From the NCBI GenBank assembly GCA_963797095.1, contig CAWCNY010000002.1, positions 768,001-832,000 on the forward strand: a stretch of DNA of 64,000 nt, read 5' to 3'. The notes under the pieces were generated by a model that searched no databases, was not told where the DNA came from, and saw only the letters and a list, made by a program, of their open reading frames with translations. Source of the DNA: an uncultured Chloroflexia bacterium. Its GTDB lineage: Bacteria > Chloroflexota > Chloroflexia > QHBQ01 > JADMIH01. The translations under genes and the position numbers were made by a program. Positions 52,801 through 59,597 of this stretch are shown in pieces. The number at the start of each line of letters is the position of its first letter. Position 1 is the stretch's first letter.

Positions 52801-54378
52801 TTAGGCAGCAGCCAGGGCGGCGAAGGGTGATATGCGGGTAGTCGCCCTCGGTTTCTCACTCCACCACGCCGATAGTCGCCCCACATTTATCGCTACCGCT
52901 GTCAGTACATGCTGTAGATGTGTCTTTCGCTCACCCATGTACCTCGCCCGCCGCATCTCATGCCCCACCACTGCCTCTGATAGCGTTCCTTCGATATCTG
53001 CTCGCCCAGCATACACCGCTTTGAACTCTTGCGTCTGCTGCCTCATGCGCGCTCGCTCCAGAGCCTCATGCTCCGCTTGCCGGTGCAGCGTCAACTCCCG
53101 AGCCCAACTCTTGCGTCTGGTACACCGCTTCCGCACCTCACACACCCTGCACTCTGCTGCGTTGAACTGCACTTGGATGGTTGGTTTGCCCCTCGACCCT
53201 ATCTCCTCGTGCCAGTGGCGGCTGATGCGCCCTTGCGGGCAAATCGCTCGCTTGCCCGCCCAATCGATTGTGAAGGTCGTGATGTCGAAGGCCTCCGGGT
53301 CTAGAGCTTGCCAGCTTACATCGGGGCGTACCGGCCCCACCACATTCACCCCATATTCCTGCTTACTGCTTACCAGCACTTCGGCGGACGCATAGGTCGT
53401 ATCCACCAGATGCTCCCCTGGCAACCTCCCATCCTCATCTCCATCTGCGGCTGCAGCCAGGTCCCGGTGAATAAGGGACAGTGCCATGCTGTCATCCTCG
53501 GTGGCTGGGCAAGTGTGCACATGGGTTATCAAGTGCGGCATATCTGGCTCGCATGTTTCGGTAAGATGCGCTTTGTAGCCCACCCATGATACGCTGCGCT
53601 TGCTGCTGTAGCGTGCCTCTGTATCATACGGGGAAGTGATCCGCTCCGCTGCCATTGGGGTCAGTGTATCCTGGCTATTCTGGCTATTCTGGCTATTCTG
53701 GCTATTCTGGCTATCAGAAGTACCCGGTTCCTCGCCTAACTTGGTCCTGGTCTTGGGCTTGGCCTTGGCCGTGCCCGTATCTGTTGCTGTAACTACGCTG
53801 CTCGTATCCGTTCTTGTGCCTGCGCCTGCGCCTGTGGTCGTAATCGTTCGCAAATGTGCCTGCCCATCGGTGACGATATACTGCTGTTGCCACACCTGCC
53901 GCAGAACCTTCACGGCCTCCAAGTCACGCAGGTGGGGTGGAGCATCAGCAGCAGGGTGCTCAACTAAGGCAAGCAGGTGTAACCCATTCGCTCCTATCTG
54001 CTCGGCCAACACAGTGCGCTTGGCCTCCTCCTTGGGCAGGCGATATTCATCAATGAGGCGGCTGTAGCGGTCAAACCATTCGGGTGGAGTGTTGACACGC
54101 AGCCAACCGGGTGCCTCTTTGGCCAGGGCATTGAGGGCATATTGGAGGGTGCGTCCCACCAGTTCGACCCGGTTGAGGCTACGCACTGCCGCTAGAATGT
54201 GAGTGGAGTCGGTGCGCTGGCGACCTCTTGTCTTGAGTAGGCCACGCTCCTGTAAGTGCTCAAGCAGAGTATCAAGCAACAGGTGTTCAGCGTGGTTGGC
54301 GAGCAGGCGGTCGCGGAACTCGGAGAGTACGGAGAAATCGAAGCCCGGGTCGGTGAGTTGGAGGCCAAGGAGATACTT
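52801..54378 (-). CDS. IS1182 transposase, 3' exon
   Basis: Begins KYLLGLQLTDPGFDFSVLSEFR; QRTDSTH, GYKAH, VDTTY, IEGTLS. Confidence 0.88.
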   Translation of the reverse strand, partial: KYLLGLQLTDPGFDFSVLSEFRDRLLANHAEHLLLDTLLEHLQERGLLKTRGRQRTDSTHILAAVRSLNRVELVGRTLQYALNALAKEAPGWLRVNTPPEWFDRYSRLIDEYRLPKEEAKRTVLAEQIGANGLHLLALVEHPAADAPPHLRDLEAVKVLRQVWQQQYIVTDGQAHLRTITTTGAGAGTRTDTSSVVTATDTGTAKAKPKTRTKLGEEPGTSDSQNSQNSQNSQNSQDTLTPMAAERITSPYDTEARYSSKRSVSWVGYKAHLTETCEPDMPHLITHVHTCPATEDDSMALSLIHRDLAAAADGDEDGRLPGEHLVDTTYASAEVLVSSKQEYGVNVVGPVRPDVSWQALDPEAFDITTFTIDWAGKRAICPQGRISRHWHEEIGSRGKPTIQVQFNAAECRVCEVRKRCTRRKSWARELTLHRQAEHEALERARMRQQTQEFKAVYAGRADIEGTLSEAVVGHEMRRARYMGERKTHLQHVLTAVAINVGRLSAWWSEKPRATTRISPFAALAAA

Positions 54379-54452
54379 ATCGAGTAAGGGAGAGCGGGTC
54401 GCCCCGCCTCCCTCCTCACAGAACCGGACAAGACCGTCGCCGATCATCCGGC

Positions 54453-55304
54453 TCAGGCTTCCACCGACTTTACTGCGGGTCTTCTACCAAATGTTGCGCG
54501 GTGGCAGACTTCGTGTAAGATGCTGAGGTTTTCCTCCTCATCTGTTCCACCGTCTGCTACCGATTGCTCATGGTGAATATGAATACGCTCTTCATTGAAC
54601 AAGTGCATTCGGCACAGGGGACATCGCCAGTGCTGCTTTGCGGCTACCCGGTATAGCTTTGACCCCACAGCAAAATAGCTTTTGCCATATCTTGTCTGCC
54701 GTGCCGCCCAGTATTCGCCCAGCGTTGGGTCGTCTGGGGATGCTGCGCCTTTGACTTTGATGTGGCGAGTAATTGGCGTCTGCCCTATCCGATACAGATA
54801 GGTCTTCGTCATCTTACCGTGCCGGTTCTTTGTCTTGGCGTAGAAGACCCAGTTGTTCCCGCCTACTCTCGTGAAGTAACGCGGAAGTACCCACCGTGGA
54901 CCCTTACCCGGGTGTCGCCGTCTCGCCCATCGGATAAGTAGTAACACTAACCGGTGGCTGAAGGTGGCGAACATCTTCTTGCTCACCCCATGCTTGTAGT
55001 AGTTCGCCCAACCCCTCAGAATCGGGTTTAGCACGTCAATCACGTCGTCGGGACCAACGTTCGGATGCGTGACCAGCCACTGCTTGATTTCACGCAGTTT
55101 GGTCTGCACCTTTTCCTTCTGGGGCTTGATTAGGCATTTCGTGCCGTAGCGACGGATGTTGAAACCCAAGAAGTCGAAACCATCTGCAATGTTGCGGATA
55201 TGGGTTTTCTCGGTGTTGAGTTCGAGTCCGCGCTCGGCCAGCCAGGCTACCACATGAGGTTGAATAGCCTCGATTTCCTCCCTCGTGGCTGCTGTTATGA
55301 TGAA
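54453..55304 (-). CDS. ltrA: Outer intron-encoded RT/maturase/HNH, 3' part
   Basis: FIIT...GFDFLGF, maturase LNPILRGWANYY, CPLC..HH..GG...NL..LH..CH. Confidence 0.9.
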   Translation of the reverse strand, partial: FIITAATREEIEAIQPHVVAWLAERGLELNTEKTHIRNIADGFDFLGFNIRRYGTKCLIKPQKEKVQTKLREIKQWLVTHPNVGPDDVIDVLNPILRGWANYYKHGVSKKMFATFSHRLVLLLIRWARRRHPGKGPRWVLPRYFTRVGGNNWVFYAKTKNRHGKMTKTYLYRIGQTPITRHIKVKGAASPDDPTLGEYWAARQTRYGKSYFAVGSKLYRVAAKQHWRCPLCRMHLFNEERIHIHHEQSVADGGTDEEENLSILHEVCHRATFGRRPAVKSVEA

Positions 55305-57811
55305 GTGGAGTGGGCGGCCAGCGAGGTGCTGCTTGCGCAGCTCTTTTCTGTCCGCCTCTCCCCGAACCGGGCTTACGCCTTTCGGAGTACCCGGCTCTCC
55401 AGTGTTTTCCTTCTCGCGGCTTTCACGGCAGCAGTTTGAGTGTTGCGACCAGCATGAATGCTATCGTGGCACTCGCGACAGACCACCAGCGTCTTGCGCT
55501 TGCGAGCTGCCATCACCTGCATCCAGAAAGGCGGTTCTGCGCGTCCTTTGGTCCGTAGATCTTTGAGTGCTCGTACATGATGCACCTCGATGTTTTCTCG
55601 TGAACCACAAAGCTCACAAGCTTGTGCCAAGAGGCGTCGTTCGAGTTCCGCTCTCGGTCCGCTGATTTGTAGGGGCGCGTCGTTCAGTATTGCCTTGGAG
55701 TTGCGTGCGAGTGAAATACCGCCCCACCGCGCTATCAACGGTTTTCTTCCTTTATCGCCCTTATCACGATCGCCCTCATCACGCTCTACCCTGACTTCGA
55801 GGATTGCACGTGTTCCCTGATCTGTCCGTACTAAGGTGTGGTATCGCTTGTAGATAGATCGGACACTGATCTTGAGTTTTGAGGCCAGTGTCTGTGCCAG
55901 GGAGCGTTCCATTAGCCATTTCAGTTGGTTGAGTTTGTGAAGGTTGAAGGCCAGTCGATAGTATTCCACGAGACCCCGGTACTCCTGCTGGTATTGTGCC
56001 ACGATACTGAAGACAGCATCGTGTTCAAGTTCCGGTCGGTGGATCGGTTTGGCGTGGCGCAGATAGCGTTTGCATTTCACTTTCACAACCTCTGCTGGTA
56101 CTTTCAGTCCGATCCCGCCGTTGATGCTGCGGTGACCTCGGCGATCCAGCTTGTGGTCGTTATTGAGCACCACGATATCATAGCCCAGGAAATGCGCAGC
56201 TTTGGTCCGCGCATGGGTAATCAGCGTCTTTTCCTCAGAGAGTTCCAACTTGAGATCCTCTCGTAAGAAGTCCCGGATTGCAGACTTGATTTCCTGGGCT
56301 TCTTCTCGTGGGCCGCTGAAACCGAGTAGCCAATCATCGGCGTAACGACAGTAACGCAGGCGTCGGTAGTTGGGGTCGTGTGTGTCCAAGGAGGGGACCT
56401 GCTGCATCAGACGACGCATTTTGCAGGCCTCTTTCTTGTCACCATGTTCCTTCAATTGCCGAGCAAGCTGTTGTCGCCGTTGCCATTCAGGATTGAGTCT
56501 ACGACGGTTTCCGCACGTGTACCTGGGAAGCAGTGTCTTCTCGACAAACTGGTCCAACTTGTCCATGTAGATGTTCGAAAGAACGGGGCTGAGCACGGCA
56601 CCTTGTGGGCTTCCACTCAGGGTGCAGTGATAACGCCATTCTTCCAGGTATCCGGCTTGCAGGAGGCGTTCGATCAAGCGTAAGAAGCGATTGTCGAAGA
56701 TCTTCTCGCGTAGGATTGATATCAGGACTGTGTGGTCCAGAGTGTCGAAGCACGCTCTGATATCGCCTTCCACCCACCATTTTGTGCCTACCCACTTATG
56801 TTGGATCTCGCTTAGCGCGGTGTGACACCCACGTTGAGGGCGAAAGCCGTGTGAGGCCGGGCTGAATTGCGGTTCGTAATATGCCTGTAGGATAAGGCGT
56901 ATCACTTCTTGCAACAGCTTATCCGACCAAGAAGGGATTCCTAGCCCACGCCTTTTGGTCGAGTTTCTCTTGGCGATGTACACGCGTCGTACTGGCGTCC
57001 ATCGATATCGTTCCTGTCGTAGTGCACCGATGATGGCTTCGATCTTGGCCAGCGACATCCCATCCACAGTTTCGTCTGTTACGCCAGGTGTCATAGCCCC
57101 GTTATTGCGGTAGATATGCCCATAAGCGAGTAGATACAAGTCTGGGTTGAACAGTTGCCGGTACACGTCCTCCAATGGCAAGCCCTTCTTGCCGCGTTCA
57201 TGGATGATCCCCAGCACAGTTTCGGCGTTTCGCATCTCGCGTACCTCCCTGATTGGGTCTCACAACACCTGCCACCCTTCCCCATTGGCAACTTATCTTC
57301 TTTGCAAGGCATTGCCATGTTGCTATGTTGCTATGTTGCTATGTTGCCATGTAGACGGCTTTCCCGTCCTCGGAGTAATATGGTGGCTCCGTCGCCATGG
57401 GGCTCGCGCCCTGTAGGCGATCCCACATTCCCAAGGTTATGGACGTATCGAGCGTGACGTAGGTGCCTGTTCCGTCTCCTTGAGTCAGGTCGTTCCTGAC
57501 CGCCCATTGTGCGAAAGGTTCAGGCGGCGACGACTTAACCGCCCTATCACAATGGCTCCGCCAATAGATGCTATGGTCGGAGAATATTCGCTTGCATCGC
57601 TGGAGACTAAGGTTTGGGCAGTTTGGCTCTCACCATATCACGCGGGTCTTGCAGAACGATACCCTAAGCATCTTCAAGTATCTTCCGCTTCAGCAGCATG
57701 CTACTGTTCCCTTCAGCTTTCGCTTCCAGGTAAGCTGTTGACCCGGAGGTCTTGTCTTCCGTACCTCCCCTTTCTGCGAAAGGAATCCATTATCTTGGTT
57801 ATGTGGCGCAC
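55305..57811 (-). mobile_element. Inner group II intron (ML/IIA-like)
   Basis: 5' GTGCG at 57811; domain V GAGAGCCGGGTACTCCGAAAGGCGTAAGCCCGGTTC; 3' end CCCACTCCAC. EBS1 GTCGTC at 57529-57534. Confidence 0.92.
55373..57235 (-). CDS. ltrA: Inner intron-encoded RT/maturase with HNH-like C-terminus, intact
   Basis: TPGV..ETVDG, SHGFRP, PQGAVLSP, RYADD, FLGY, CELCG..EVHH..CRECH. Confidence 0.95.
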   Translation of the reverse strand: MRNAETVLGIIHERGKKGLPLEDVYRQLFNPDLYLLAYGHIYRNNGAMTPGVTDETVDGMSLAKIEAIIGALRQERYRWTPVRRVYIAKRNSTKRRGLGIPSWSDKLLQEVIRLILQAYYEPQFSPASHGFRPQRGCHTALSEIQHKWVGTKWWVEGDIRACFDTLDHTVLISILREKIFDNRFLRLIERLLQAGYLEEWRYHCTLSGSPQGAVLSPVLSNIYMDKLDQFVEKTLLPRYTCGNRRRLNPEWQRRQQLARQLKEHGDKKEACKMRRLMQQVPSLDTHDPNYRRLRYCRYADDWLLGFSGPREEAQEIKSAIRDFLREDLKLELSEEKTLITHARTKAAHFLGYDIVVLNNDHKLDRRGHRSINGGIGLKVPAEVVKVKCKRYLRHAKPIHRPELEHDAVFSIVAQYQQEYRGLVEYYRLAFNLHKLNQLKWLMERSLAQTLASKLKISVRSIYKRYHTLVRTDQGTRAILEVRVERDEGDRDKGDKGRKPLIARWGGISLARNSKAILNDAPLQISGPRAELERRLLAQACELCGSRENIEVHHVRALKDLRTKGRAEPPFWMQVMAARKRKTLVVCRECHDSIHAGRNTQTAAVKAARRKTLESRVLRKA

Positions 57812-58723
57812 GTCGTCCGCAAAACGGATGTAACCGTAGCGTGGATTAGCCTGTTTATGTACACATCCCACCTGTTTGCCGCGCTTGTTGGTGTAAGTTC
57901 GCTGGTTAGTCCATTGACCAAGCCAGCGTTCCATACCGTCCAAGGCAATGTTGGCGAGTAATGGTGAGACGACAGAGCCTTGTGAGGTACCACTCTCAGT
58001 GGCGTGGAAGATCTCGGCCTCTACATAGCCTGCCTTCAGCCATGCTTCTATCCACTCGCGTCCCGGCGTTTGGCCAATGGCGTCGAGGATATATTCCTGA
58101 CTGATATTGTCGAACGCACCCCGGATATCGGCGTCGAGCACAAAGCTGTGTCCGTTTGCGCCCTTAAACCAGTTCCAGCATTGCACGATGGCATCATGAC
58201 AATTGCGGCCCGGACGAAAGCCATAGCTGTTCGGCTCGAATTGGGCCTCCCAACTTGGTTCCAGTGCGTTCTTGATAACTGCCTGCGCGATGCGGTCTTT
58301 GAGAGTTTGGATGCCGATCGGCCTTTGTTTGCCATTGGCCTTAGGTATATATATCCGCCGGGCTGGTTTGACCTGTCGTGGTTTGTACTCCGGCATCTCG
58401 CGGATCACTTGCGTCCTGGTTTTGGCGGTAAGAGCAGTCTGACCATCAATGCCAGCCGTTTTCTTGCCGTGATTGTCCATGGTCACTCTTCGCGTTGACA
58501 GTAGCAGGTTTGCGTAGCTGCGCATCATCAGCTTCTTCAGGCTGCGCACCTGATTCCACTGACCCGCTGCGGTCGCACGATAAATCCTTTGTCTCAGGTT
58601 CCTGACCCGATTGTTAACAATAGCCCAGTCAATAGCGTCCCAATCAATGGGAGTGCCTTGTTTGGGTATCTCGCTGAAAGCAGATCCTGGCGTTCCGATG
58701 TCAGAAGTGACTCTATCTTGCAC
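57812..58723 (-). CDS. ltrA: Outer intron-encoded RT, 5' part (ends at FADD)
   Basis: RVT_N (WDAIDW...RIYRA), SYGFRPGR, DADIRGAFD, QGSVVSPLLAN, RFADD. Confidence 0.9.
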
Positions 58724-59331
58724 GTCAGTTTGGTTCCTTCACATTAGTTCTATCGTCAGAAGCTAGCTGGAAGTCAGCCGCCTTTCGGCGTGGGGCAAAT
58801 CTTGAAAAGAACCCCTATCCCGCGCATTACTGCGGGCCTTCGCTTGCTCCAGCGTCTTTTACCCGATGAGTAATTCTGCCTTCCTTACGGTCGGCTTACT
58901 CCGCATGCCAAGTGGAGAACTCAACGGGCTTACCGTAGTTCCAGATGTTGAGATGCGTCCAGGGAAGGTCCTGCCTATGCTCCGGTGGGAGTGTGTCCTG
59001 TCGTCGAGCAGCGACTGGATTTGCTCGACCACCCACTTACCATTTTGGTGAGAGTGTCTCAGCCTTATTGCACTCTTGCCGAATCACGAAGCTTTAGATG
59101 GCAGTTCACTTGCGTTGACCTATCTGACTTCCCCTTGCGCATGACCAGGTTTAGGCTACCAGTCAGCGGCGCTTGCGTGGCCTGCATTCCACCAGGTTCA
59201 TTGCTTACTACTGGAGTGGCCGGGGTCAGAGACCCTTTTACGTGGGGACAGTGGGACAGAATCCACTGGGAGAGGGCTAACTCTCCACTCGATGGAGTTA
59301 CCTCCTTACATCTAGCTTAGCTACGTCGCAC

Positions 59332-59597
59332 CCAGTCAATCCGGCTGCGAACAGCGTCGGCAGCCTGGCGGTCGGTGAGGTTCTCTATGAACTGCATGAT
59401 CAGCACAAGAGCCAGTCGGGTAGGGCAATGGGCAGGCTGGCCACGTTGGGGGAAGAGTTGAGCAAACAGGGGGTCGGAGAAGATGGACCGAGCTGCTCAT
59501 AGATGCGCATGTACAGGTTGCCTTTTGGAAAAGCAGCCCGCGCCACACGTTCAGTCTCTTCGGGGATCTGGTATACGATCAACGGGTGCAGGCACAT
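59332..59597 (-). CDS. IS1182 transposase, 5' exon (1-nt frameshift near 59487)
   Basis: MCLHP..IPEETERVARAAFPKG, then in the shifted frame FSDPLFAQLFPQRGQP...DRQAADAVRSRIDW. Confidence 0.85.

Follow-up and report, generated by a model that had tools for sequence, protein, structure and literature searches.

A nested group II intron that probably homes to the reverse-transcriptase active-site codons of other retroelements

Homing into the conserved sites of other introns has been described as a proliferation strategy of group II introns in the available text of two sources (Mohr et al. 2010, PMC2882425; Zimmerly & Semper 2015, PMC4424553), so the principle is established and what we describe here is not new in kind. 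One lineage already has the codons of a reverse transcriptase (RT) active site as its address: the target of B.th.I3 is the RYADD coding sequence of an RT gene, including the intron-binding sites IBS1 and IBS2 (Tourasse & Kolsto 2008, PMC2504315). B.th.I3, M.a.I5, UA.I3 and P.l.I2, which share 58–67% sequence identity, have a B-like RNA of about 1.8 kb, lack an endonuclease (En) domain and show conservation confined to the 5′ exon (PMC2504315). Here we analyse a 64,000-nucleotide stretch of an uncultured Chloroflexia bacterium (assembly GCA_963797095.1, contig CAWCNY010000002.1, positions 768,001 to 832,000; hereafter the window) and the group II intron within it that we call inner1. Inner1 is very probably a retroelement of the mitochondrial-like (ML) class, with a IIA-type RNA and an intact RT–maturase–HNH protein, that homed into the RT active-site codons of a different group II intron; it would thus occupy the inner place in a bacterial group II twintron, whose outer, RVT_N/GIIM/HNH-type intron lies in an IS1182-like transposase gene.

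Like the B.th.I3 lineage, inner1 occupies RYADD-type codons with IBS1 and IBS2 inside the motif. It differs from those introns, going by their published description, in its length of 2507 nucleotides, in an ML-type intron-encoded protein (IEP) with an HNH domain and in its use of δ–δ′ pairing with the 3′ exon. Homing to YADD codons is therefore already published for another lineage, and the inner1 lineage is an En-containing, ML/IIA-type one that inserts one nucleotide upstream of it. We found no report in the open-access literature of an ML/IIA-type, En-containing lineage that homes to YADD with a δ′ requirement in the 3′ exon, nor of a guide that reads its target in codon register. Three further systems invite comparison. 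The TeI3/TeI4 twintrons of Thermosynechococcus elongatus can move as a unit or separately and, as far as the available text describes them, consist of inner and outer introns that are close relatives sharing one IEP (Mohr et al. 2010, PMC2882425). Recognition by the IIA intron Ll.LtrB uses the same exon-binding sites, EBS1, EBS2 and δ, against IBS1, IBS2 and δ′, with the RT reading the flanks and an En domain present; there, in the accessible portion of the source, the target is one host gene, whereas here it is the coding sequence of a protein motif common to many retroelements (Enyeart et al. 2014, PMC3898094). The nested introns of Methanosarcina acetivorans are archaeal, reach up to five levels and are without coding exons in the part of the review available to us (PMC4424553), whereas in the inner1 family self-nesting is seen in none of nine members. 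Other twintron papers, on Porphyridium, Trichodesmium and a groEL intron, are not about YADD sites.

Three mobile elements are nested in the window, with every feature on the minus strand: the IS1182-like transposase gene contains the outer intron, which contains inner1 (Table 1). The exons flanking inner1 read ...CGT TTT GCG GAC GAC/TTC ATC ATA... (RFADD/FII, with the slash marking the insertion site), the 5′ exon ending at 57812 and the 3′ exon starting at 55304, so that the target in the outer RT can be written TTTGCGGACGAC/TTC. The Pfam RVT_1 profile of the outer RT is broken at positions 155/157 by inner1, and from the exon frames and the Pfam matches together its frame is regained solely through removal of inner1. 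A first-pass annotation of this DNA had held that the intron gates the RT of the elements it enters, and the split profile agrees with an outer RT that is readable only after inner splicing, the dependence itself being inferred. The ends of inner1, GTGCG at 57811 and ...CCAC at 55305, conform to the GUGYG and AY boundaries of group II introns; the first-pass annotation had set the start six nucleotides too far out, at 57817, which takes in IBS1 bases. The IEP matches RVT_1 (7e-32), Intron_maturas2 (1.7e-11) and AI2M-like_HNH (1.3e-16), a set that in the established classification marks the ML class, which accompanies IIA RNA structure; a δ that adjoins EBS1 and takes the role otherwise played by a separate EBS3 fits this class. 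RVT_1, an ML-type maturase (X) domain, an En domain and a domain V/VI core, the features by which the class is recognised, are all present.

Two loops of domain I jointly pair with 13 of the 14 nucleotides of TTT GCG GAC GAC/TT. The hairpin at 57523–57544 has the GGGCGG/CCGCC stem given in the first-pass annotation, with identical sequence: on the minus strand GGGCGG (57544–57539) is followed by TTAAGTCGTCG (57538–57528) and CCGCC (57527–57523). It displays AAGUCGUC, read as δ plus EBS1, and the motif AAGTCGTC occupies 57529–57536 inside this loop. EBS1 (GUCGUC) forms six Watson–Crick pairs with GACGAC (−6 to −1), two further pairs join δ (AA) to TT (+1 and +2), and EBS2 (GCGAA) forms four Watson–Crick pairs and one G–U pair with TTTGC (−12 to −8). 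The sole unpaired target base, −7, falls at the wobble position of the Ala codon. Taken alone, the 8-mer does not exceed chance: it has 2 matches in the 64-kb window where 1.27 are expected, a count also reached by 39 of 100 shuffles. Its weight comes instead from a conserved hairpin, from matching loops in distant relatives and from the better match of guides to their own targets.

The conserved hairpin was recovered by an RNAalifold consensus of domain I from eight family members, where a 7-bp hairpin, kept in 8/8 and with both-sided changes at 4/7 stem pairs, carries the motif in its terminal loop, within a domain I-like fold with both-sided changes at 44/131 pairs. A small hairpin loop, GCG(T/A)A, lies about 45 nucleotides upstream of the EBS1 hairpin in the family. 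In distant relatives the loop homologous to EBS1 is complementary to their own, different 5′ exons: CACTG against CAGTG in L051, TAATCC against GGATTA in L053, and, in L022 and L025, an EBS1-like loop at intron position ~277 whose ACTTTC is the exact complement of GAAAGT. The reading of the hairpin loop as EBS1 with an adjacent IIA-type δ, proposed in the first-pass annotation, is thus supported by the conserved hairpin, its covarying stem and the guide–target match in relatives, and we treat the loop as a putative EBS1 on these comparative grounds.

Guides also follow their targets. Most family members have the EBS2 GCGTA, which is perfect against TAC and makes one G–U pair against TAT; L012 has GCATA, a perfect match to TAT, and the GCGAA of inner1 faces a host codon for Phe (TTT) rather than Tyr. 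Cognate guide–target pairs contain no mismatch in 8/9 members, the exception being the δ of the decayed copy L010, and over 20,000 permutations the cognate assignment beats permuted ones both in Watson–Crick pairs (p=0.0065, above 99.35% of permutations) and in having fewer mismatches (p=0.013). The δ dinucleotide AA lies 5′ of EBS1 in 8/9 members, and the 3′ exon starts with TT at +1/+2 in all eight members for which it is known (seven Phe, one Leu encoded by TTA). In most guides of the family the synonymous C/T positions −10, −4 and −1 are faced by G, which makes these guides indifferent to synonymous spelling such as GAT versus GAC. Recognition by Ll.LtrB involves positions −12 to −8, −6 to −1, +1 to +3 and T+5. 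All 8/8 family targets have T at +5, which we give as an observation only.

The family as defined here has nine members: inner1, inner2, L010, L011, L012, L013, L037, L045 and L066. A search for related loci returned 39, of which seven, all cyanobacterial records, have at least 70% best-segment identity; six of these have a visible 5′ junction (L010, L011, L012, L013, L037 and L045), at RYADD/ in every case, and the seventh (L044), truncated at its 5′ side by an insertion sequence (IS) and cut at a contig end, has none. L066 is a second copy in the genome that carries L011, at LIRYADD/, and inner2 lies in the genome of inner1 itself (C3:115831-118378; 69% nucleotide and 66.6% amino-acid identity to inner1), at AGG TAT GCC GAT GAT/TTC GTG in a host RT 42% identical to that of inner1. 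Metagenome contigs were scanned without reference to exons, using as pattern only the first 25 intron bases of the family. This gave 18 loci, 17 with a 5′ exon, and 17/17 of those exons end in (Y/F)A(D/E)D codons; four of the junctions belong to a single element (RYAED), another repeats the L010 contig, one has a 1-nucleotide frameshift and two show just the final 9 nucleotides of the 5′ exon (the ADD codons). The tabulation of homologues' flanking exons proposed in the first-pass annotation therefore places the family at R(Y/F)ADD/ in 9/9 and the exon-blind junctions at (Y/F)ADD-type sites in 17/17. A quick maximum-likelihood tree of 26 IEPs unites in one clade the five homers whose IEP is full-length (Shimodaira–Hasegawa-like approximate likelihood ratio test (SH-aLRT) support 100); frameshifts or short open reading frames excluded L013, L045, L010, L035 and some further IEPs from this tree.

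Insertion at unrelated sites, which in close homologues would have spoken against the homing claim, is confined to more distant relatives (50–60% identity): nine Firmicutes-type loci lie in an SNF2-type helicase gene and five in domain V of other introns. A sample of 400 genomes from the host's own phylum contained 10 with a related domain I. Nine of these gave a readable 5′ exon (L058 did not), and in no case does it end in YADD codons. It is well supported by these comparisons that inner1 belongs to a clade predicted to home to the (Y/F)ADD/F codons of RT genes of other retroelements. Besides the host of inner1, a second RFADD host (TTT GCA GAT GAT) invaded by a family member was seen at the short metagenome locus L082. 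In L010 (Tolypothrix; L010:5058-5809) the inner IEP is replaced soon after YADDWLIGFSG by an IS630-like transposase fragment, with a mismatched δ, as in a decayed copy.

A site shared by a whole clade across such diverged hosts indicates independent homing, not co-inheritance. One could suppose instead that a single ancient insertion was passed down with the outer intron, so that the shared position would stem from the descent of one twintron without site-specific homing. In favour of this, the twintron copy on contig C3 of the same genome is nearly identical to that in the window, with just two differences in the outer part and one in the inner part, and the twintron probably moved as one unit. 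Across the family, however, host RT parts after the junction are 35–68% identical where at least 44 residues align while inner IEPs are 66–91% identical; the closest inner pair, L012 and L037, has IEPs that are 90.8% identical in host RTs that are 41% identical; the host of L083 is of a different RT type, being itself ML-type and 47–62% identical to the family and its ML-class relatives; and EBS2 is retuned to the host codon. An empty site exists as well: in our read comparison, which used metagenome contigs only, so that stretches without cover are uninformative, one 817-nucleotide contig of run X3 (~96% identity to the outer RT) runs directly from 55304 into 57812 and lacks precisely the 2507 nucleotides between them, whose ends are GT..AC. 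Together these make descent from one insertion extremely improbable. Very unlikely too is the domestication of inner1 as a switch controlling expression of the outer RT or the transposase. Such a switch would need an outer RT frame restored by inner splicing alone, which the locus has, yet the RT and En domains of the inner IEP are complete, the hosts between which the family moves are unrelated, decay has affected many outer RTs (L068, the L069 group, L079 and L013) and the transposase 5′ exon is frameshifted here. We accordingly keep to inner1 as a homing retroelement, against which several points weigh. No Rfam D1–D4 family matched either intron (57200–59400, E≤1), so the EBS assignment rests on comparison and the RNAalifold loop, not on a curated covariance model. 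Relatedness of the members inflates both the 9/9 count and the permutation p-values. Co-variation at −1 is clean in the first nine members and weak once metagenome loci are added: in the pool, four of the five A guides face T and one faces C (L067, a mismatch), and G guides are opposite C seven times and T five times. The decayed copies L010 and the L069 group show a mismatch in δ or IBS1. The run X3 contig is a natural empty site, or a spliced transcript should the guess that this run is DNA be mistaken. The outer intron around the second inner1 copy is dead, the IEP of inner2 has a premature stop at codon 79 in both of its copies (C3:116408-118312 and C1:492807-494711), and no RNA run is listed among those that contain the locus.

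Whether the family spares its own RT is a separate matter, on which the first-pass annotation had proposed avoidance of self-insertion through codon choice and a change of Phe to Trp. The own motif of inner1, CGT TAC GCC GAT GAT TGG (RYADDW, 56347–56330), does differ from the target at three of the eight paired positions, as had been noted (−4, −1 and +2). At −4 and −1 the difference is a T opposite G, a wobble rather than a mismatch, and over 13 positions the guide of inner1 makes 9 Watson–Crick and 2 G–U pairs with its own site, the mismatches being A opposite A at −11, which arises because EBS2 was retuned to TTT, and G opposite A at +2. In L011, L012 and L013 own site and target differ just by a wobble at −1 and by +2, and in L037 they are identical from −12 to +1, with equal computed duplex energies (−6.1 for the own site versus −5.9 kcal/mol for the target). 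We therefore rejected self-avoidance by synonymous codon choice, since GAT and GAC yield G–U wobbles with guides that carry G and the L037 own site equals its target. What remains of the proposal is the following residue: after the own YADD it is W in 8/9 members and V in 1/9, never F, against 16 F, 7 W, 3 H, 1 I and 1 T in 28 non-homing relatives. W or V at this place is the sole consistent difference between own site and target, and it fits a δ′-based immunity with a single evolutionary origin.

That immunity may be real and adaptive, a δ′ mismatch at +2 (or +1), perhaps with IEP contacts to the 3′ exon, blocking self-insertion and specialisation on YADD/F being possible only since the own RT has W (or V) after YADD; we regard this as a serious candidate with rather less than an even chance. 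It accords with the absence of F from all nine members set against its frequency in non-homing relatives, with near outgroups L014 and L024 carrying I and F in the tree, with TT at +1/+2 in 8/8 known targets and with the absence of any invasion at the own YADD in all nine members. In the own genome, moreover, RT sites reading ADD/TT are occupied 3/3 and those followed by CTG, GAA, TGG or GTG 0/9, the unoccupied ones including foreign RTs with good IBS1 and IBS2 matches and CTG or GAA after ADD. Against it, W arose once in the clade, hence without replication, and is found also in relatives that do not home to YADD (the domain-V homers L022, L027, L028, L034 and L035, and L041); V is carried solely by inner2, a pseudogene; only one or two δ′ positions make the difference, with the equal L037 energies; the empty sites of the genome can be explained otherwise, by an EBS2 of inner1 retuned to TTT and a dead inner2; and a second YADD-homing lineage invades its own kind, as in the nested array of L047, so that sparing is not required. 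Several of these points favour the alternative that the own-site differences are a phylogenetic legacy without protective effect, self-insertion being rare or harmless and W after YADD neutral, to which we give close to an even chance: W occurs in relatives that home elsewhere, the L037 own site equals the target from −12 to +1, and nested self-invasion is tolerated in the L047 lineage and, in the available part of a review, described for Methanosarcina (PMC4424553). A mere legacy sits poorly with F in 0/9 members versus 16/28 non-homing relatives, and with 0/9 own sites invaded despite being near-perfect in IBS1 and IBS2.

If inner1 is the homing retroelement that we propose, its guide would act from two domain I loops, EBS2 (GCGAA) with TTTGC and δ plus EBS1 (AAGUCGUC) with GACGAC/TT. 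The pairing would span the F/Y-A-D-D codons and the first two bases of the next Phe codon, leaving only the fourfold-degenerate third base of Ala free. As in other IIA introns with an En domain, insertion would presumably proceed by reverse splicing, with cleavage of the bottom strand by the HNH domain followed by target-primed reverse transcription, and outer RT would be made only after inner1 is spliced. The likely benefit is a landing site that is conserved, multi-copy, host-neutral and itself mobile. Any protection of the own YADD would depend on the W (or V) codon that follows it, by a δ′ mismatch perhaps aided by protein contacts with the 3′ exon.

Among the copies in this genome, that in the window alone looks functional by its reading frames and ends: it has an intact inner IEP, an outer RT whose frame can be restored and a complete outer 5′ end. 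The second twintron copy (G000:C3:566597-573007, where G000 is this genome) has an outer intron without its first 27 nucleotides and, within the outer RT, a 1.47-kb IS with terminal inverted repeats and a 477-amino-acid DDE transposase; the gene around it, for a diverged IS1182-like transposase, is interrupted at the same .../KYLL codon. The C1 copy of inner2 is a 5′-truncated duplicate of the C3 twintron that contains inner2 (99.9% identity over 3176 nucleotides). Elsewhere in the genome, an uninterrupted group II RT (G000:C2:711091-712845), 51% identical to the outer RT, reads RYADDEVVFCE, with Glu (GAA) where invaded relatives such as L012, L010 and L013 have Phe (RYADD/, then F or L, V, V or I, FCE); this could be a resistant allele or a coincidence. 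Another twintron (G000:C1:28410-32677, minus strand) has an ML-like RT 40% identical to the inner IEP with YADDW as its own site, its outer RT being split at a different conserved motif, ...ASCFD(R)/IDQAALL, and its 5′ end lacking a clear GTGCG.

Table 1. Coordinates of the nested elements and of the proposed guide and target positions in the window
Feature	Position	Strand	Description and basis
Inner group II intron (inner1)	55305..57811	−	2507 nt, 5′ GTGCG, 3′ ...CCAC; sequence, Rfam RF00029 match ending at 55305
Inner intron domains V/VI	55305..55399	−	RF00029, 54.5 bits (gathering score 40)
Inner IEP	55373..57235	−	620 aa and intact, with an RT, a maturase and an HNH endonuclease domain
Inner IEP's own active site, TAC GCC GAT GAT TGG (YADDW)	56330..56344	−	
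Putative EBS1 hairpin of domain I, loop with δ (AA) and EBS1 (GTCGTC)	57523..57544	−	Sequence; RNAalifold columns 281-287/297-303
Putative EBS2 (GCGAA) in small hairpin loop, pairing with IBS2 TTTGC	57587..57591	−	Family alignments
5′-exon target, F-A-D-D codons of outer RT	57812..57823	−	IBS2 TTTGC 57823-57819; IBS1 GACGAC 57817-57812
Unpaired −7, third base of Ala codon	57818	−	
First codon of 3′ exon, TTC (Phe); +1/+2 (TT) as δ′	55302..55304	−	
Outer group II intron, host of inner intron	54379..59331	−	GTGCG at 59331; domain V/VI 54379-54456, RF00029 47.3 bits
Outer IEP, N-terminal part	57812..58723	−	304 aa, ending ...RFADD; Pfam RVT_N and RVT_1 profile positions 1-155
Outer IEP, C-terminal part	54453..55304	−	283 aa and stop, starting FIITAAT...; Pfam RVT_1 157-205, GIIM, HNH
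Transposase gene 3′ exon (IS1182-like)	52801..54378	−	Pfam DUF772 (profile positions 39-71), DDE_Tnp_1_6; junction ...IDW/KYLLGL
Transposase gene 5′ exon, ending ...IDW at 59332	59332..59597	−	Start codon and junction codon out of frame

In the transposase 5′ exon the frame of the ATG (MCLHPLIVYQ...EQLGP) and that of the junction (...IFSDPLFAQLFP...RIDW) are offset by one base, and the gene looks frameshifted. Two short tandem repeats lie on the minus strand of these elements: about four copies of an 8-nucleotide unit at 57313–57350, in domain IV of inner1 directly upstream of the IEP start, and five copies of a 9-nucleotide unit at 53668–53713 in the transposase 3′ exon, coding for a Ser-Gln-Asn run. 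Metagenome contigs of run X4 have other sequence in place of 57251–57346, so that this stretch is variable.

Two groups of introns outside the family likewise lie in conserved parts of other introns. At L019:2039-4190 an intron with an En-less IEP (427 amino acids, Rfam group-II-D1D4-2) sits at GAT GAC T/TC of an ML-type RT, one nucleotide downstream of the family site, on a scaffold that holds empty and filled forms on either side of a run of Ns; at L047:1515-3990, introns with En-less IEPs are nested in each other's own YADD/G site. These introns are likely members of the published En-minus lineage that homes to YADD. The introns of L022, L025, L027, L028 and L035 (50–56% IEP identity) are inserted in domain V of another group II intron, two bases past the GNRA loop, with flanks that read as two domain V halves; a search of the open-access literature found no report of a bacterial domain-V homer.

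More speculatively, and as a joint picture that we consider unlikely to hold in full, the YADD-codon homers and a sister group at the GNRA loop region of domain V (L022, L025, L027, L028 and L035) might together form a radiation of obligate 'introns of introns'. The guide would then be a degenerate probe for a protein motif, with G opposite every synonymous C/T and the Ala wobble in the −7 gap; one EBS2 change would retune it to F-ADD, the own RT would escape through W or V after YADD, and the whole would be convergent with the En-minus lineage that uses the same motif one nucleotide downstream.

On the narrower reading of inner1 as a homing retroelement, targeting of RT active-site codons would have arisen in a second, unrelated intron class, which is En-containing and IIA-type, uses δ–δ′ pairing and has spread across cyanobacterial and other genomes. 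Its 13-nucleotide RNA guide would offer a clean natural example of an RNA that keeps to a protein motif despite synonymous and Tyr/Phe differences. In annotation, RT genes with an apparent end at ...ADD that is followed by VRH... are likely twintron hosts, not pseudogenes.

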